A DNA stretch of 64,000 nt from Candidatus Heimdallarchaeota archaeon (lineage in GTDB: Archaea; Asgardarchaeota; Heimdallarchaeia; Heimdallarchaeales; Heimdallarchaeaceae). The notes under the pieces were generated by a model that was given only the letters and a program-made list of their open reading frames with translations, ran no database searches and was not told where the DNA came from. The translations under genes and the position numbers were made by a program. Location of the stretch: assembly GCA_030603365.1 (NCBI GenBank), contig JAUVXV010000002.1:352001-416000 (forward strand). The letters are read 5' to 3'. Below are positions 22,181 to 30,165 of this stretch, one piece after another (positions within the stretch are counted from its first letter, which is position 1; the number at the start of each line of letters is the position of its first letter).

Positions 22181-23386
22181 TTGTTATCTCTCCTAATGTC
22201 TTTTAGGAAAAGCTTTGGCTTAGATTTTCATTTCCCTGAAACTGAAATTTACCTAGATTCCGCTACTTCGGGAAAGATGCCTGTTTCTTCAGTTGAAGTT
22301 ATGAGTAACTATTATACTGAATTAGGAGGAGGAATTAATAGAGGCACTCATAAAAAAGCTGTAAATGCTAATAGAAAACTAGAACAATCACGTTCTACAG
22401 TAGCAAACATTTTCTCAGTAAATTCCAACAATGTTTCTTTTCTTCCCTCTCGAGAAACTGCTTTGATGAACTTTCTTCTATCTGGCATTTTTTCAAAAGA
22501 TAATGAAATAATAGTTAGTTCTTTAGATGATCATTCCATACTTGCACCAGTTTTAAAACTAAGAACAGTATACGATGTGCGTTTAAACTTTCTAAACCTA
22601 CAAGACGAATCAAATCTAGTTGAAGTCATAGAAGAGAGAATTACAGCAGAAACTAAAGCGATAGTTCTTTCAGTTATGACCCTGGGAATGGGAATTAAAC
22701 GAAATTGGAGAAAGATTACAAAAATCGCTCAGGATGCAGAAATACCTTTAGTTCTAGATATAAGCAATGCTATAGGTCATATGGAATTTAATTTCAAGGA
22801 TATAACTCCAGATATCGTAGTTTCTTCTGGAAATATCGGTGCGTTAGGTCCCCAAGGTACTGCTTTTCAAATTGTAACAGAGGACATGATGAAGAAATTT
22901 GATCCCATCTTAGTTGGAGGAGGAACAGTTATGTCTCTAGATAGATCTACCTATAAATTAGCTTCTGGCATTAACAAATATGAACCAGGGACTCTCAACA
23001 TAAGTGGAATTGCAGGATTAGCTAATAGTTTACAATCTTTATCTGAGATAGGTTTTGAAAGGATTACTAAACACGAAATCGAGCTACGAGCAATGCTTGA
23101 AGATGGGTTAAGAAAGACTAACAAATTGAACCTCATCGAACATCAAGGGTTAAATTATGGCCCAATACTCTCGTTTATGAGTGATGAGATAGATTCTCAT
23201 GACATTGCTATCATTCTCGAAGATTTGGGAGATATCTATGTAAGAAGTGGGGCATTATGTTCACATTTGTTCATGGAAGAACTACAAAAAGAATCTCTTG
23301 TTCAGGTTTCTACACATCTTTATAACACTAAAGAGGATATAGAAATTTTCTTAGAAACCTTAAACTCCATAATGTCTGAAATTTAG
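22181..23386 (+). CDS. SufS/CsdA-like class V aminotransferase-fold protein A, PLP-binding Lys replaced by Ile
   Basis: YLDSATSG, INRGTH, SGNIGALGPQG (canonical SGHKGxxGPxG), YEPGTLN, RSGALCSH, HLYNT. Confidence 0.85.
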   Translation: MLSLLMSFRKSFGLDFHFPETEIYLDSATSGKMPVSSVEVMSNYYTELGGGINRGTHKKAVNANRKLEQSRSTVANIFSVNSNNVSFLPSRETALMNFLLSGIFSKDNEIIVSSLDDHSILAPVLKLRTVYDVRLNFLNLQDESNLVEVIEERITAETKAIVLSVMTLGMGIKRNWRKITKIAQDAEIPLVLDISNAIGHMEFNFKDITPDIVVSSGNIGALGPQGTAFQIVTEDMMKKFDPILVGGGTVMSLDRSTYKLASGINKYEPGTLNISGIAGLANSLQSLSEIGFERITKHEIELRAMLEDGLRKTNKLNLIEHQGLNYGPILSFMSDEIDSHDIAIILEDLGDIYVRSGALCSHLFMEELQKESLVQVSTHLYNTKEDIEIFLETLNSIMSEI

Positions 23387-23503
23387 AATTAGTGGGTATC
23401 CATTTATTAGTTACTTTTACTTTCTTTCATTGTTTGAATCACATTCAAGAATATCTTTTGCTAGTTTAAATACCAAACTGCGTATAATAATTCCAGAGAG
23501 TAG

Positions 23504-25711
23504 TTGGTGGAATTTATCTCAACTGAAACTATCACTCGTACATTTCATTTAAATTCAATTGAAACAGAAGAGATATTTTGTTATAGAGTATTTGGAGATT
23601 TTAAATCTGCAGTAAATACTCTAATAAAAGGAGGAATAAACCTCAACAACGAAATTTTCAGAGAAGAGAGTTTAGTTTCAGTAAAGCGGTTCTATTCACT
23701 ATTAAGAAAAAATTCATGTATAAGTGCTAAATTGAGCAAGCTTGAAATTAAAGAACGTTTATTGAGATGTGCTGCTCAGTATGCATATTTTTCTATTCGT
23801 AACCTAAAACAAACAAGAAATTTGTGCAGTGAGATTGCACAAGTAATGAGTGAAGATTCTTCTTGGAATAAATTTCGCAGAGATTCTTGGTTCTTATGGG
23901 ATTTATCTAAAAAATCAAAAAAAAGAAGAGATAATTTGAATGTAAAATTATTAAATCAGATTAAGAACAAACATAATTCTATATATCCTGAACAAAACAG
24001 AATGTGCAATGCACACTTGATAAATAATTATTTCAGACACATTCGAAAAATTATTCTTAGTAATCTTCAAAGGAAGGATATCAAAATCAATATTGATTCA
24101 GAATATTGTATTAAAACAATTCGAGAACATTACAGTTCTGAATACATAGATACTCTGATTAGTAAGTTTAAAACTCAAATTTCAACTTTATTAACTAGAC
24201 AATTCAAGAAATACAAAAAGAATGAAATTTCTGAAAAATCAGATGGAAACAAACAATCAAACGTTCCAGTTTTAAAAACTATTTACTCAATATGTAAAAC
24301 TAAAAAGATTCATAATGTTGAAATTGAAGAATGGAAACTAAAAAAAGAGTTATGGTTGATTAGATATATCGACGAAATTAGAGATTTCTTTAAATCTGAA
24401 TGTGTTAATCAAGAAATTAACAGAGGGATAAAAAGATTACAGGAAAAACCAACAGTGTATTTCCTAGCAATGTTTTTAGAGAAAAAGATTTTCAAATTGA
24501 GAAGAAAAATTCAAGGAGAACCAGTTAGAGATTTCTATTTCTTTCTATCACAAATAATAGATTATCATCTCACTCATCTTATACTCGAAACACAACAGAT
24601 GGTTATTTTACCTAAAATACGCATGATTCTCCTTGATTTCATTCTAAAGCCACTATCTTATCTCAAAATGCCAATCTTTACAAAATCAGTAATCCCTTTA
24701 GGAATCGATGACAATCAAGTTTATACATTGGAAGAGTTACAAAGTGAAGTAAAAATCACTTTGTCCTTTTATCCAAATCAGAAAAAACATTTCAAATTAT
24801 CATCACCAGAAAGATATTTCGAATTAACTATGAATAATGCAAAACCTGCACGAGGAATTCTTTCAGCTCATGGTGGCAAGCTTCAACTTGCTATTCCGTT
24901 TACTAGACGTTTACCAGAGTTATCAAAGATAAAACCTCTTGAAAAACAAAGAATTCTAAATTGTGATCTTGGATTGAAATCTTTTGCTGTTTTGAGTATT
25001 ACAGAAAATGGTTTTGAAACACATAGAAAATTCTTGGATCAAAAACAACTAACGGGTTCAAAAAATTCATGGTTCCTAGCAAAATCATTTAGAAATAAAA
25101 ACACAAAAACACGAGAAAAACCAACTATAAATTATAAATTCAATCTTATGAAACTCCGTAAAAAAATAAATAATTTACAATCAGAACTGAAAATGATGAA
25201 AGAAGAGACGAAAAGAAGAAGATCTAAGAACAAGAATTATCCTAAGTATAAAAATACCAAACTGTACTGGTATAAAAAAAGAGAATTGAAGTCTTACTGG
25301 AACAGAATTAGGAATATTCACAAAGAATTGATACATCAAATTTCTACAAGAATAGTTGAATATGCCAACTATCATCAAGTAGATACTATACGCTTTGAAG
25401 ATCTTCGTTGGACTCAACATTCAGCTAAACATGAAGTTGGTTATTTTCTCTCTTTCTGGCAAGTACATTGGTTTTTCAGCCAGATAATAGAATACACATC
25501 ACAAATTGCTAGAAGATATATGATTAGGTCTGTTCTAACTAATCCATATAAAAGCTCACAAATTTGCTCTACTTGTGAAAAGGAAGGAAAAAGACAAAGA
25601 AAGATATTCATGTGCTCAAATGAACTGTGTGGACTAATACTTGACAGTGATTTAAATGCTGCTCGAAACTTAGGTAAAAAATCACGCAAATGTTATCCTA
25701 TTCGACTATAA
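23504..25711 (+). CDS. Large (735 aa) TnpB/Cas12-like RuvC nuclease with C-terminal zinc ribbon
   Basis: RuvC-I NCDLGLK (D488), RuvC-II IRFEDL (E632), SSQICSTC...FMCSNELC, RuvC-III DSDLNAARNL (D716); Lys/Arg-rich; long uncharacterised N-terminal half. Confidence 0.85.
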   Translation: MVEFISTETITRTFHLNSIETEEIFCYRVFGDFKSAVNTLIKGGINLNNEIFREESLVSVKRFYSLLRKNSCISAKLSKLEIKERLLRCAAQYAYFSIRNLKQTRNLCSEIAQVMSEDSSWNKFRRDSWFLWDLSKKSKKRRDNLNVKLLNQIKNKHNSIYPEQNRMCNAHLINNYFRHIRKIILSNLQRKDIKINIDSEYCIKTIREHYSSEYIDTLISKFKTQISTLLTRQFKKYKKNEISEKSDGNKQSNVPVLKTIYSICKTKKIHNVEIEEWKLKKELWLIRYIDEIRDFFKSECVNQEINRGIKRLQEKPTVYFLAMFLEKKIFKLRRKIQGEPVRDFYFFLSQIIDYHLTHLILETQQMVILPKIRMILLDFILKPLSYLKMPIFTKSVIPLGIDDNQVYTLEELQSEVKITLSFYPNQKKHFKLSSPERYFELTMNNAKPARGILSAHGGKLQLAIPFTRRLPELSKIKPLEKQRILNCDLGLKSFAVLSITENGFETHRKFLDQKQLTGSKNSWFLAKSFRNKNTKTREKPTINYKFNLMKLRKKINNLQSELKMMKEETKRRRSKNKNYPKYKNTKLYWYKKRELKSYWNRIRNIHKELIHQISTRIVEYANYHQVDTIRFEDLRWTQHSAKHEVGYFLSFWQVHWFFSQIIEYTSQIARRYMIRSVLTNPYKSSQICSTCEKEGKRQRKIFMCSNELCGLILDSDLNAARNLGKKSRKCYPIRL

Positions 25712-25838
25712 GTTAAATAGGAGGGGTTTCCGTTTAATCCCAAATTAAGTTGCTCAGAAGAGCAACTTTGAAAATTCGGTCACTTAAGCTTCTTTCTGGC
25801 ATAGCTTCAAGCTTCACCAAATGCCTTTCGATCATTCC
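25696..25838 (+). ncRNA. Putative omega-RNA/right-end RNA of the TnpB-like gene
   Basis: Consecutive hairpins 25696-25722, 25723-25741, 25747-25768 (perfect 9-bp stem) and 25786-25807, then TTCAA/TTCAC resembling IS200/605 right ends. Confidence 0.45.
25819..25838 (+). repeat. 20-nt repeat, copy A
   Basis: aaatgcctttcgatcattcc versus aagtgccttccgatcattcc at 28862..28881 (18/20). Confidence 0.75.
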
Positions 25839-25947
25839 GTATATATTGGTTGTACAATTGTATATACAAAAGTTTCTATATCTGAAGAATGCAATAACAT
25901 TGATATTCTCAGGTTATTTTTTTCCAAAGATTAAGAAAAGATTATTC

Positions 25948-26184
25948 TTATTGTATATATTCTGTTTCTTCTTTTTCTAGAAGTAGATAAATTCTATCAA
26001 AGTTTATTTGTTCTGCAGCTGCACTTCTTTCTGTATTTTTTGTTATCTTCCAATCCTTGATTGTATATCCTTCTGGAAGTTTATCAAATGCATCTTTTAT
26101 AGCCTTATCAAGTATTTCAATTCCTTCTGAAGTAAATATCGCTGTATTTACATCTAAATATTTCAGTTCATATCTCGATCCCAT
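25948..26184 (-). CDS. Small hypothetical protein
   Basis: 78-aa ATG ORF with protein-like composition. Confidence 0.6.
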   Translation of the reverse strand: MGSRYELKYLDVNTAIFTSEGIEILDKAIKDAFDKLPEGYTIKDWKITKNTERSAAAEQINFDRIYLLLEKEETEYIQ

Positions 26185-26415
26185 TCAAATCAATGTAAAA
26201 CAACATAATTTCTTTAAATACTTTTTGAACAACCATTTCTTCCCAAAAAATTTCTATTGTTTGTATACTTTCTATCATTTATCTTTTTTTATTTCTATGA
26301 TTTCCTTTCTTAATTCAAGTACTTCTTCATATATTGACAACTTCATTAGCTCCACAACTTACTCTACAAAGAAAACCCTTCGTAGGTGGATATTTAAGAA
26401 TTGTTGACAAAGAAG

Positions 26416-26452
26416 TGTAATACGTCCTGTAATACACGTTCTATGCATTACA
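26416..26452. promoter_or_regulatory. Operator-like TGTAATRC repeats
   Basis: tgtaatac at 26416 and 26428, inverted gcattaca at 26445, just upstream of a TATA-like element (tatttaag) and ORF 26490. Confidence 0.4.
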
Positions 26453-26489
26453 AAGGTATTTAAGATAAAAAAACTAATTATTATTTGAC

Positions 26490-26744
26490 ATGGCTAAAAA
26501 ATACAGAATTAGTGAAAAAATAAGAAAAAAGATGAGAAAGGACAAATCCTCACTCTTTCCCTTACCTTTGAAAAAGAAGGTCGAAGTAGCTTTGTGTTAC
26601 AGATGTAATAGAAACAAATCTACTAAATTGTGCCTTAATTGTAGAAAACCTATTTGTAATCCTTGTGAAACAAAAAATCCTAAAGGTTATTGCGTTCCTT
26701 GTAGAAATGAAAAATTCGGTTTTGTATCATTTACTTTTGAATAA
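26490..26744 (+). CDS. Small basic zinc-finger protein (B-box-like, 8 Cys)
   Basis: CYRC-x8-CLNCRKPICNPC-x8-CVPC. Confidence 0.7.
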   Translation: MAKKYRISEKIRKKMRKDKSSLFPLPLKKKVEVALCYRCNRNKSTKLCLNCRKPICNPCETKNPKGYCVPCRNEKFGFVSFTFE

Positions 26745-26797
26745 AGATTTGATGAATTGTTCCGCGTAGAGATAATTCAAATAGTTCTATATTATGT

Positions 26798-27007
26798 TTA
26801 TATTTTCTTATTTCTTGATCTACGCTCTATGATGATAAGTAACAGACCTATTGCAAGAAATCCAATTGCTGCAGGTTGAATCCACATTGCCATCGATCCT
26901 CCTGAAAAATCTTTTACAAACCAAATTATAGTAAAAACTATACCGATGATTAAAACTATCGGACCAATCAAAATTCTAAAAGTTATTTTTTCTAATAAAC
27001 TCATCAC
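26798..27007 (-). CDS. Small two-TM membrane protein
   Basis: Two hydrophobic helices, basic tail, strong SD-like ggaggtaa upstream on the minus strand. Confidence 0.65.
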   Translation of the reverse strand: MMSLLEKITFRILIGPIVLIIGIVFTIIWFVKDFSGGSMAMWIQPAAIGFLAIGLLLIIIERRSRNKKI

Positions 27008-27185
27008 GATTTACCTCCCTCCATTCTGTGAGAGAGTACAGGATTTTTCTCACATTTTTAAAAAGTAACCGATTATCTGTAGTAAAACTATTTTCTTTTT
27101 TTACCATTTTACGACCAAACCGAAATCTAAACAATTCAGATAAAAACTAAGAATTAACTAACAATCAAAGAAGGATGAGATCTTA

Positions 27186-28475
27186 ATGAATAAAAACATA
27201 GTATATGGAAGCACATTGATAGTTGTTTTTTTAAGTGCAGGAATACTTACTGGTTATTTTATTCCGCAAAATAATCAGGCACAATATGATACACTACTAT
27301 CAGAATTTCAAGATTTGAATGAGGTATATAATGCTCTTTTAGAGGATTACAATACTCTACTAGGGAATTATACTGAAATAAAAGAGAAATGCGATATAAT
27401 AACTGGAGAATACGATTCTTTGAATGAAACCTACTACAACCTGTTAGAAGAGTATACTTTGTTGAATGAAACCTACAATGAATTGTTGGTAGATTATAAT
27501 ACCTTTGTAGAATCTTTCAACACATTGCAGATAGCTTATGATCAACTAAATGATTTATATTCACAACTTCTGATTGATTATGCTGTTTTTGAAAATGAAT
27601 ATAATGCTTTACTCCAGAATTATGATTTGTTGACAGCATGGATCAGAGGAATGACTTTACCTGCTCAGTACATGGTTTTTGCTGAGGCTGTTAGAAGATA
27701 CTACTTTGAAGATTTTTATGTTAAAGATACTTGGGCTACGGGAAATGAAACAGGATATTTTGCAGAATATGCACTATTCAGTCGTGATATAGTTTTGCAC
27801 GATTCTGATTTGTCATTGAAAGGAGAATTATTTGCTGAAGTATCAAATGCTCTTTCTGATTGTTTGATATATGGGAATGAAACTGAAGGCTTAGCTTGGA
27901 TGTGTATGATTGGCGTGTTTTATCCTTGGCTTCCTAATTGGAGTGGATATTATTCGTCTGGAAATGAACTAACTGATATTGATACAATAGTTCAGTGGTG
28001 CATTGATGAGATCGACTACGAATATGATACAACTATAACATATGGACAAGAACTTTATTTTTGGGATTATGTCAAGTTTCCAGTCGAAACAGCTTTCAGA
28101 ACAATGGGGGATTGTGAAGACCAAGCTCTATTCTGTGCAGCTTATCTAGAATCTTGTGGATTTCAAACTGCACTAGCATTATTTCATGATGCTGAAAATC
28201 CTATTAGTCCTGATGGTTTTTATCATGCAACTTTGTTAGTACATATAGAAGACCTAGCAAACTTTCAGTTTTGGCATCCATTTTGTCCTTTGTGGAGTCT
28301 AAGTGACATAGATCCATATGAAGGATATACTTGGGTATGGTTAGATTCTACTTGGGATGTCTCGTTTCCGTCAAAACCTGGATGGATGCAATACTACCTT
28401 GATAATGGAATAAATGATGACGATCTTACAATAGTACTATGTGACTTAAATGGAGCTACTAGCTATGCTCCTTAG
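27186..28475 (+). CDS. Membrane-anchored coiled-coil protein with a transglutaminase-like cysteine protease domain
   Basis: N-terminal TM, heptad repeats (YNxLLxxYxxL), IDYEYD, PVETAFRTMGDCEDQA (Cys), YHA (His), WLDSTW (Asp). Confidence 0.8.
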   Translation: MNKNIVYGSTLIVVFLSAGILTGYFIPQNNQAQYDTLLSEFQDLNEVYNALLEDYNTLLGNYTEIKEKCDIITGEYDSLNETYYNLLEEYTLLNETYNELLVDYNTFVESFNTLQIAYDQLNDLYSQLLIDYAVFENEYNALLQNYDLLTAWIRGMTLPAQYMVFAEAVRRYYFEDFYVKDTWATGNETGYFAEYALFSRDIVLHDSDLSLKGELFAEVSNALSDCLIYGNETEGLAWMCMIGVFYPWLPNWSGYYSSGNELTDIDTIVQWCIDEIDYEYDTTITYGQELYFWDYVKFPVETAFRTMGDCEDQALFCAAYLESCGFQTALALFHDAENPISPDGFYHATLLVHIEDLANFQFWHPFCPLWSLSDIDPYEGYTWVWLDSTWDVSFPSKPGWMQYYLDNGINDDDLTIVLCDLNGATSYAP

Positions 28476-28641
28476 CAATTTTTTTTCCTCTTAATTAATT
28501 ATACTTATACGTAAGCAATCTGCTTACAGAGATTTAAACCTCGAGCAGTAAGAAGTTTGTTTGTGATCTTACATTAGTCGTGGAGAAATGGCTTTAAACT
28601 TATGTTTAATGATTCGTATGGCTTTTTTGTTTCTTATATTA

Positions 28642-28783
28642 TGTCTCACCCCTCACTGTTTTTCAACTGTTTAACCCTGCTTTTTCTGGGAAGATTTTCC
28701 TGCTGATCCAGACCACAGAAAGTTCTTGTGCAGAGGAAAGGAAAGGAAGGGTTGAGACGAGAGAAGAGAGAAGGGGTGATACA
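28642..28783 (+). ncRNA. Unclassified structured RNA candidate (long rod with two apical hairpins)
   Basis: tcacccct/aggggtga, gtttaaccct/agggttgagac, ctttttctg/cagaggaaag, inner ggaa/ttcc and cacagaa/ttcttgtg stems; GC-rich relative to flanks; G-U pairs favour the + strand. Confidence 0.5.
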
Positions 28784-28861
28784 CACTAGTATAGATCTTA
28801 CAGAAATTTCTTTCGTTTCCGAAGATAGATATTTATTAAAGAGTAACCATAAAAAAAATGG

Positions 28862-28881
28862 AAGTGCCTTCCGATCATTCC
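28862..28881 (+). repeat. 20-nt repeat, copy B
   Basis: 18/20 match to 25819..25838; ends about 90 nt upstream of the ATG at 28972. Confidence 0.75.
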
Positions 28882-28971: not shown

Positions 28972-30165
28972 ATGTCGTCTATAACACGATTTGGAATCGA
29001 GTTTAACATAAGATCTAACCAAATATATCTAGATTCTGCAACCATTGGTAAAATGCCTATTTCCTCAATTAAAGCCATTTCTGATTATTATCTAGATGGG
29101 GGAAGTGTACCAGTTAGGGGAATGCATAATGAAATTTCTCAAAGTAATAATTTTCTAGAAGAAAAAAGGGGAGAGCTAGCAAATCTATTTCAAGTAGAAC
29201 CTGTTCAAATTTCGTTTTTTCCTTCAAGAGAATCCAACTTAACAAGTATCCTTTATTCAATAGAAGATATCAAAGATAGGAGGATTATAACTAGCGTTCT
29301 TGAAGAACACTCTGTAATTGGTCCTGCTATCAGAGCTAATAATGATCATGGAACAGAAATAGATTATTTGAATGTAAAAAACGAAACAAATCTGTTAGAG
29401 AGCATTAATCAGAAGGTAAATTCCGAACAAGATATTCTGCTTTTATCTTCTTTAACTTCAACCAACGGAGTTAAGAGAGATTGGTCTGAGATAGCTAAAG
29501 TCTGCAAAGACACTGGTGCAACTTTTCTTCTTGACATAAGTTATTCTTTAGGTCATGAAGAGCTAAATTTCAAAGAAATTTCTCCTGATGTTGTCTTCGC
29601 ATCAGGTTGCATTGGTGCATTAGGACCCCCTGGAACAGCTTTTCAAATCACTAAAAAAGAGTTTTATGATAAGATGGATCCATTAATTGTGGGCGGAAAT
29701 TCAATAATTACTTTGGAAGAAGAGTATTATTTACTTACATCTTCAGGTTCTAAATTCGAGACAGGACTCGTTAATTGTGCAAATATTAGTTCGATGGTAA
29801 ACAGTTTAAGGATATTATCAAACGTTGGCTTTTCTAAAATTCAGGATCATGAAAGTAAATTAAATAATTTCCTAAGAAAAGAGTTAGAAAATTTACCATA
29901 TATTGAAATCAACAGTGTAGAAAATGTGGAATATGGTCCTATCATCTCCTTTGGCAGTAATAAAATTGAAGCTCATGATCTGGCTATAGTTCTAGAAGAC
30001 TTGAAGGATATCCAAATAAGAAGTGGAGCTCTCTGTTCTCATCTTTTCATGTATGAATTACCATTCAATGATATTTTGAGGGTATCTACGCACCTTTACA
30101 ATACAGAAGAAGAGGTGAAAATATTCATTGAGACACTTTCCTCAGTCTTAAGTGAGATGTCTTAG
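28972..30165 (+). CDS. SufS/CsdA-like protein B, PLP-binding Lys replaced by Ile; paralog of 22181..23386
   Basis: YLDSATIG, PVRGMH, SGCIGALGPPG, FETGLVN, RSGALCSH, RVSTHLYNT. Confidence 0.85.
   Translation: MSSITRFGIEFNIRSNQIYLDSATIGKMPISSIKAISDYYLDGGSVPVRGMHNEISQSNNFLEEKRGELANLFQVEPVQISFFPSRESNLTSILYSIEDIKDRRIITSVLEEHSVIGPAIRANNDHGTEIDYLNVKNETNLLESINQKVNSEQDILLLSSLTSTNGVKRDWSEIAKVCKDTGATFLLDISYSLGHEELNFKEISPDVVFASGCIGALGPPGTAFQITKKEFYDKMDPLIVGGNSIITLEEEYYLLTSSGSKFETGLVNCANISSMVNSLRILSNVGFSKIQDHESKLNNFLRKELENLPYIEINSVENVEYGPIISFGSNKIEAHDLAIVLEDLKDIQIRSGALCSHLFMYELPFNDILRVSTHLYNTEEEVKIFIETLSSVLSEMS

Follow-up and report, generated by a model that had tools for sequence, protein, structure and literature searches.

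A large TnpB of a heimdallarchaeon in an IS607-type element, from a family likely restricted to Asgard archaea

The large tnpB gene described here is part of a non-autonomous IS607-type element whose transposase has since been lost or is supplied in trans. It lies in a 64,000-nt stretch of DNA from a Candidatus Heimdallarchaeota archaeon, called the window below. According to the predicted structure, the protein owes its size to a helical insertion of about 280 residues that follows the REC1 core. Its relatives form an apparently undescribed family of large-REC IS607 TnpBs, which sequence searches indicate is likely restricted to Asgard archaea and which, judged from its insertion sites, is still mobile. 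We consider it likely that TnpB of this IS607 lineage, together with a guide RNA, cuts the empty insertion site and that repair from the occupied copy keeps the element in place.

Boundaries and insertion site of the element

The limits of the element were read from empty sites in relatives. Most congeners carry two SufS-like genes 160-180 nt apart, and the spacer between these genes runs from a stop codon through about 10 nt to GG, followed by the sequence that is found after position 25779 in the window. At this empty site, GG is joined to TCAC, and one genome of the genus (G016) keeps the longer motif TAGTGGG. It was the SufS pair that revealed the empty site; the small downstream gene did not, because its neighbors differ in relatives. 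The element spans positions 23397-25779 (2,383 bp), ends in TTCGG (25775-25779), and is inserted at a GG core without target-site duplication. GGT is present at each junction, which leaves a one-base ambiguity in the position of the crossover. The features at and around the left end are as follows:

22181-23386, plus strand: SufS-like gene of the host on the left flank (Pfam Aminotran_5; adjacency in relatives)
23393-23396, plus strand: TGGG of the host next to the left junction, the target motif; its last two G residues are the recombination core, and the predicted TAM is (D)GGG
23397-23503, plus strand: eroded left end and leader of the element, with no transposase gene in the sequence
23465-23472, plus strand: archaeal TATA-like box TTTAAATA, a putative promoter element
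28972-30165: SufS paralogue on the other side of the insertion (adjacency in relatives)

Only 107 nt separate the left junction from tnpB, and the copies in three other genomes (G013, G003, and G001) have similar TATA-like boxes upstream. The original prediction saw no TnpA in the window, which holds for an IS607 transposase next to the gene: a tblastn search found no IS607 transposase match in the 1.5 kb upstream of tnpB, and the three matches in the host genome all lie on other contigs. Members of the family that do bear a transposase have a clear inverted TGGACA/TGTCCA motif near their ends. This subterminal motif is not recognizable at either end of the window copy or in its genus relatives. 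Because the left end is eroded and the motif is missing from both ends, excision of the window copy may have ceased. The copy is probably immobile now, and its nuclease may be idle.

The same gene had been thought to belong to an element with an IS605-type TCAA/TCAC end, a view that the boundaries overturn, as the ends are of the IS607 type. The candidate sequences TTCAA (25806-25810) and TTCAC (25813-25817) are host DNA, and this host sequence, with a loop that varies, is also present at the empty site of relatives. Membership in the IS200/IS605 (Y1) group was rejected on this ground and because a serine transposase is the sole recurring upstream gene.

The TnpB protein and its recognition lobe

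A 735-aa open reading frame with a RuvC triad and a zinc ribbon had been proposed, and each of these points is confirmed. The open reading frame call agrees, and in an alignment that took in 28 homologues the three acidic residues lie in the RuvC-I, RuvC-II, and RuvC-III motifs and are invariant. Likewise, the first three cysteines of the zinc ribbon are invariant and the fourth is almost so. The protein is laid out as follows:

23504-25711, plus strand: tnpB, intact, 735 aa, TTG start
23558-23818, plus strand: REC1 core, about residues 19-105 (approximate limits, as placed by a REC-only model)
23819-24658, plus strand: all-helical REC insertion of about 280 aa, about residues 106-385 (predicted structure; conserved in the clade)
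24965-25651, plus strand: span of the RuvC triad and zinc ribbon (homologue alignment)
24965, 25397, and 25649, plus strand: D488, E632, and D716 of the RuvC triad
25565-25630, plus strand: zinc ribbon C688/C691/C704/C709

By profile score, the protein is outside the curated TnpB subfamilies NF040570 and NF038280 of NCBIfam, with 68 bits against a cut-off of 100 for the first and 31 bits against a cut-off of 350 for the second. Its sole Pfam domain is a C-terminal Cas12f1-like_TNB domain (5.6e-12), which has 17 further matches in the host genome, where this tnpB itself is present in one copy. The PADLOC profiles for Cas12f and Cas12u3 match at E values of about 1e-19.

The approximately 480 residues ahead of RuvC-I had been described as free of recognizable motifs. 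This description does not survive modeling, as AlphaFold2 (pLDDT 86) resolves a WED strand (residues 7-18), a helical REC lobe (28-381), and further WED strands (396-469) in this region, followed by RuvC and the zinc ribbon. Taken together, the model and the alignment reveal a WED-REC-RuvC-zinc ribbon architecture with a D-E-D triad. The best profile and structure matches are to V-U3/Cas12f. The whole model aligns with AsCas12f (PDB 8dzj; Z 16.7, rmsd 3.6, 354 residues aligned), with the TnpB of ISFba1 (PDB 8iaz; Z 15.1, rmsd 4.5, 354 aligned), and with Fanzor2 (Z 14.6, rmsd 4.0, about 355 residues), and these scores of a predicted fold are too close for ranking. Matches in the ESM Atlas are generic TnpB clusters.

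Expansion of the REC region had been offered as the source of the unusual size, and the model agrees in placing the long helical insertion directly after the REC1 core. This core is common to the folds of TnpB, Cas12f, CasLambda, and Fanzor2, and about 80 residues of the REC-only model align with 8dc2 (Z 6.5, rmsd 2.9), 9b0l (Z 5.7), and 8dzj (Z 4.9). The insertion was found in all 28 aligned homologues, whose REC lobes span 266-462 aa. When predicted in isolation, the lobe has a pLDDT of 88.6 and a pTM of 0.82. Nothing among 48,161 chains resembles the isolated lobe at a Z score of at least 8, and Foldseek returned no match at E 0.001; the missing strong match of the modeled lobe does not prove a new fold. 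Large Cas12 proteins carry extra recognition helices at the same position, between REC1 and the second part of WED. The additional 280 helical residues probably serve as a second lobe for recognition of the guide-target duplex.

The protein is not a Cas12. By structure and by profile, the shared core comes closest to Cas12f1/V-U3 (AsCas12f), but the window TnpB has only about 15% identity with it, carries the extra 280-aa lobe, sits in a transposon context, and has no CRISPR array or tracrRNA locus that could be found. CasLambda/Cas12l, CasPhi/Cas12j, and Cas12g are of comparable length and are likewise expanded by helices at this position, but about 80 REC1 residues are all that superpose (Z 6.5), and the Asgard family has transposon ends in place of arrays. 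The reported absence of an array from the window is correct and extends further: a simple repeat-spacer scan of the window, the host genome, and 142 loci, in which many contigs were short, detected no array. The repeats that were seen are protein-coding tandem repeats only and were dismissed as a link to CRISPR.

The predicted guide RNA and the host RNA beside it

The original prediction also gave the gene an omega-RNA-like 3' region of its own. Sequence comparison supports such a candidate RNA through covarying hairpins, a pseudoknot, and a sharp boundary among homologues. Three of the four hairpins that had been proposed lie inside the element (25697-25768), whereas the fourth is host DNA past the terminal TTCGG. 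The features of this region are:

25696-25779, plus strand: 84-nt right end of the element with the predicted omega-RNA scaffold (covariation, boundary comparison)
25697-25721, 25724-25741, and 25747-25768, plus strand: three scaffold hairpins (covariation)
25730-25732 with 25777-25779, plus strand: pseudoknot of the loop CCG with the terminal CGG (clade-wide covariation)
25780-25799, plus strand: predicted guide, which lies in the host flank and could pair with the empty donor site (drop in conservation)
25778-25838, minus strand: C/D-box-like dual-guide small RNA of the host (genus-wide conservation; putative function)

When the 3' region is folded as a single sequence, the result exceeds chance only modestly (z -2.1), and the real support is covariation. 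Among the five copies in the genus, 91% of cells are paired and two-sided changes occur in 12 of 28 pairs (0 of 500 shuffles), while pairing drops to 35-47% in slid controls; these copies are related and the structure was derived from the same five, so the figures are supportive and are not a probability. The pseudoknot is seen across the clade, where at least six of the last eight bases pair upstream in 91% of 66 distinct ends, compared with 22% for shuffles. Its upstream partner tracks the end of the element, with CCG accompanying CGG, CAG accompanying CTG, TAG accompanying CTA, and CCA accompanying TGG. In the window copy, four of eight positions are paired against a clade mean of 6.5, and there are two U-U mismatches.

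When the 3' flanks of homologues were aligned for the limit between scaffold and guide, the identity of near-identical pairs stopped at CGGT or CTGT. Conservation falls after CGG and the T that follows it at a boundary that rests on unanchored pairwise comparisons, with C and T fixed by construction in the information plot. Upstream of position 25696 there is no extra synonymous conservation (0.49-0.53 against about 0.5) and there are almost no covarying pairs. Because RNA-level constraint is lacking there, the conserved scaffold would measure about 84 nt. The full RNA may extend further 5', although a longer scaffold is unsupported by these comparisons. Rfam has no match for the scaffold.

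By comparison, the ISFba1 TnpB has 387 aa and a reRNA with a 187-nt scaffold that includes RAGATH-18 (PMC11061315). The window system is like it in the WED/RuvC/zinc ribbon fold, in a G-rich TAM (predicted here), and in a pseudoknotted right-end RNA, but differs in its 735-aa protein, in its conserved scaffold, which measures about 84 nt, and in the missing Rfam match.

For the predicted guide, the host genome contains no TAM-adjacent self target and no GGG-adjacent perfect seed match. A single site with two mismatches (C11:52262) was considered as a self target, and none of 60 shuffled guides gave such a site. It was rejected as a chance match because it lies in a low-complexity Arg/Ser-rich gene, is preceded by TCTG, and fails to match the guide at position 7.

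The 61 nt past the junction are conserved genus-wide at the empty site, in the spacer of the SufS pair. Read from the minus strand, this sequence carries invariant AUGAUC and GUGA/GAGA boxes, which are non-canonical and mutually compensating. Two invariant tracts are complementary to neighboring 10-nt and 8-nt stretches of 23S rRNA (C14:158 and C14:142), and these stretches are 16 nt apart in the host genome. Rfam has no match for this RNA either. From these features we infer that the flank codes for an archaeal C/D-box-like sRNA that would guide on rRNA. The fourth hairpin and the TTCAA/TTCAC sequences fall inside it, and the insertion, located at its 3' edge, leaves it intact. The predicted guide of the element would be antisense to the 3' part of this host RNA.

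The family and its mobility

A search of 1.84 billion representatives returned 63 proteins at E < 1e-30, and homologues at E < 1e-25 were recovered from 59 of the 400 genomes that were searched in the phylum, with weaker ones making up a sister lineage. All members with an organism name, a minority of the family, are from Asgard archaea (Heimdall, Loki/Promethearchaeota, and Helarchaeota). Full-length members usually have 660-870 aa (median 785 aa among full-length open frames); those above about 950 aa, which reach 1,890 aa, consist of the same core with unrelated N-terminal additions. Another genome of the host's genus (G009) has a partial homologue of 394 aa. Viruses, phages, and plasmids yielded distant ordinary TnpBs only and no close relative. 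In a quick SH-aLRT tree, whose outgroups are unnamed and whose branches are long, the family occupies one side of a branch with support of 95 against 26 other TnpBs, and the window clade is nested among transposase-bearing members with support of 97.

The suggestion that the protein might represent an undescribed Asgard clade of large nucleases has thus fared well. Literature on TnpB or IS607 in Asgard, Heimdall, Loki, and Thor archaea describes no such family, with the supplement of one census (PMC10691335) outside the scope of this search. That census names serine-transposase branches and may include these sequences.

The single recurring neighbor of tnpB in the family is an upstream IS607 transposase gene. 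Of the full-length loci, 51 have 800 nt or more of sequence ahead of tnpB; the transposase gene is intact or decayed in 29 of these, and the remaining 22 are solo. Four transposases that were tested pass the NF033518 IS607 equivalog at 182-207 bits against a cut-off of 110. Presence and absence of the transposase are scattered across the tree, and none of the four genus copies with a full gene keeps one. Near-identical copies (92-97% protein identity) have different flanks, and the six genus-level copies or remnants occupy six different sites or neighborhoods. Reciprocally, the host genome holds the empty site of the copy in the species of Ca. Heimdallarchaeota archaeon AB_125 (the AB_125 species). 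The genes that flank the G019 copy are adjacent in the host genome, with a junction too diverged to read, and the site of the G013 copy is rearranged.

Left junctions and right ends vary together. CGG ends accompany left junctions of the form NGGG and CTG ends accompany NGTG, with T always next, as read by eye in about 25 loci. Because the junction and the end covary in this manner (GGG/CGG versus GTG/CTG), GGG is the target motif predicted here. In the CboIStron of Clostridium botulinum, an IS607 element, the target and the TAM are TGGG, the scaffold ends in UCGG, and self-avoidance lies at position -3 (10.1101/2023.11.20.567912). The Asgard junctions and ends follow the same self/non-self logic as this TGGG/TCGG pair. 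A GG core has also been described for IS607/IS1535/ISC1926 elements (PMC6188088).

The Asgard elements share with other IS607 elements a MerR-HTH and serine-recombinase transposase upstream (at the level of the family), a GG core, insertion without target duplication, imperfect inverted subterminal motifs in transposase-bearing members, and frequent transposase loss. The window copy further resembles CboIStron in TGGG at its left junction and TCGG at its right end. In contrast, the Asgard TnpBs measure 660-870 aa (up to 1,890 aa) rather than about 400 aa, the family has no intron, each of its two junctions has a conserved T directly after the core, GTG/CTG ends have been adopted in one sub-clade, and the window copy lacks a transposase. 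The host genome also has three copies of a second large Asgard IS607 TnpB, the His-type family, to which its other IS607 transposases belong. These proteins likewise have an enlarged helical lobe, but they score 12-15 bits with the profile, have a histidine at RuvC-III, and are followed by a different right end.

Proposed mechanism and competing explanations

The reading that we favor would begin with a serine transposase, which placed the element at a GG core and left no target duplication behind. From the element, tnpB would be transcribed along with a guide RNA in which the scaffold of about 84 nt continues into about 20 nt of the host sequence to its right. The resulting TnpB-RNA complex would recognize a G-rich motif, predicted to be 5'-(D)GGG, and then a guide match, a combination that corresponds to the empty site. 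The right end of an occupied site would escape cutting because CGG is located there and not GGG. Once the empty site is cut, repair off the occupied copy would restore the element, resulting in retention or homing. Cutting of the empty site and repair from the occupied copy have been demonstrated for CboIStron (10.1101/2023.11.20.567912). The 280-residue lobe would probably take over part of the job that a longer RNA scaffold performs in small TnpBs. Counted against an active system are the single copy, the eroded left end, the lack of the subterminal motif at both ends, the weak pseudoknot, and the absence of a transposase from all four genus copies with a full gene.

These same observations give some room to the idea that the window copy is an inert relic, which has the same origin but is immobile, has a weakened pseudoknot, and serves no present function. 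Decay is evident elsewhere in the genus, where the G003 copy has an internal deletion and the G001 copy is a 5' fragment. However, all 735 codons of the window copy form an intact frame that keeps every invariant residue, the hairpins are fully paired, and the TATA-like box is retained. Pairs of family members have dN/dS values of about 0.2-0.45, and the value for the window copy against other copies in the genus is about 0.25, with dS near saturation. We therefore regard a relic as unlikely.

Domestication was raised originally. In the form considered here, the transposase-free lineage of the genus would have taken on a cellular role, for example in defense or through action on the host RNA opposite its guide. 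In favor of this, the four full-gene copies in the genus are all solo and group together with support of 99, the guide is antisense to a conserved rRNA-guide RNA, and the AB_125-species copy occupies one site in several samples. Yet synteny is missing, as six genomes have six sites, each with its own guide, and the element was not found in 19 of 24 congeneric genomes, which are incomplete. Furthermore, RuvC is intact, there is neither a TAM-adjacent host target nor a partner gene, and the case is weakened by reciprocal empty sites, by the differing flanks, and by the transposases or remnants at most full-length loci. A domesticated host factor is accordingly quite improbable.

Least probable is the proposed transition toward a known Cas12 subtype or Fanzor, for which one could cite the Cas12-like size and REC growth, the V-U3/Cas12f matches, and a host lineage close to eukaryotes, but which is opposed by 142 loci without an array, by a REC insertion that no solved Cas12 lobe clearly matches, by structure and HMM scores that favor neither Fanzor nor the large Cas12 proteins (Fanzor2, at Z 14.6, is no better than ISFba1 TnpB at 15.1 or Cas12f at 16.7), and by the lack of a close viral or plasmid relative.

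Concluding remarks

Taken alone, the locus amounts to an ordinary insertion sequence that has been stranded. We tentatively propose, with slightly less than even confidence, that Asgard TnpBs independently grew a Cas12-sized lobe with a fold of its own, shrank the scaffold to about 85-105 nt, and stayed mobile without an array, and that one branch switched core, TAM, and pseudoknot together (GGG/CGG/CCG to GTG/CTG/CAG). If this is true, the family would constitute programmable nucleases of a new class, which use a single RNA, a short scaffold, and a 3-nt TAM. With its TAM, scaffold, and guide boundary predicted, the enzyme can be put to the test directly as an editing nuclease.

The family also offers a natural series, with cores from about 660 to 870 aa and a pseudoknot partner located 46-103 nt from the end, in which replacement of RNA scaffold by protein can be tested. 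Similarly, its GGG and GTG branches provide a direct test of co-evolution between transposase and nuclease. In the 2023 census, accretion of helical domains into REC is a trend of lineages that are already linked to CRISPR arrays (PMC10691335). The growth of REC in active IS607 transposons for which no array was found would mean that such expansion can precede an immune role, or occur without one.

Sequences beside the element and elsewhere in the genome

Three features lie between the SufS paralogues, downstream of the oversized TnpB gene:

25778-25838 (-), C/D-box-like small RNA
25839-28881, island of about 3 kb, distinct from the TnpB element
25819-25838 and 28862-28881, 20-nt direct repeat (90% identical) forming the island edges

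The small RNA is conserved across the genus, where it sits between the SufS paralogues. Its boxes are non-canonical and compensating (AUGAUC and GUGA/GAGA), and an Rfam search returned no match. By sequence comparison, its two putative guide tracts match adjacent stretches of 23S rRNA.

The direct repeat consists of the small RNA's 5' part and a second copy of it. The island encodes proteins of 78 aa, 84 aa (zinc-finger), 69 aa and 429 aa (coiled-coil), and relatives lack it between their SufS genes.

Elsewhere in the same genome, the 20-nt predicted guide matches C11:52262-52281 with two mismatches. This match lies inside a low-complexity Arg/Ser-rich gene and lacks the predicted TAM, and thus we treat it as a chance resemblance rather than a self target. 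His-type TnpB frames, 644-678 aa long, also occur in this genome, in three IS607 elements (C14:340883-343456, C16:152796-155370 and C16:51327-53904). Two of the transposases of these elements are seemingly uninterrupted and one is frameshifted.

Variation and decay within the family

In family members of 1,000-1,890 aa the TnpB core is intact and is preceded, in the same reading frame, by unrelated N-terminal additions. Extended members include P0063 (L215:393-6065), P0100, P0034, P0041 and P0047. P0100 has an aspartyl-protease domain as its addition, a Lokiarchaeota protein has a TFIIB-like region (E 2e-10), and three further extended members have an unknown domain common to all three.

Decay products take several forms:

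L056:7770-8370, internal deletion that brings residue 73 next to residue 623
L059:525-980 (-), transposase HTH fused to the TnpB C-terminus
L057:7601-7855 (-), 5' fragment, adjoining what looks like an intron-containing tRNA

A sister lineage in genomes of family f31 (L259-L266, L193) encodes TnpBs of 713-735 aa. It shares the right-end motif of the family and apparently the same predicted pseudoknot. Its members are mostly solo, with IS607 transposase remnants at two loci, and two loci lie near tRNA-Lys.

In one sub-clade of the family, with which a few CTA right ends were noted, the junctions have switched from GGG/CGG to GTG/CTG (L107, L114, L127, L172 and L098 contrasted with L061, L071, L106 and L177). 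The predicted RNA pseudoknot has changed along with the junctions, in a way that compensates for the switch.
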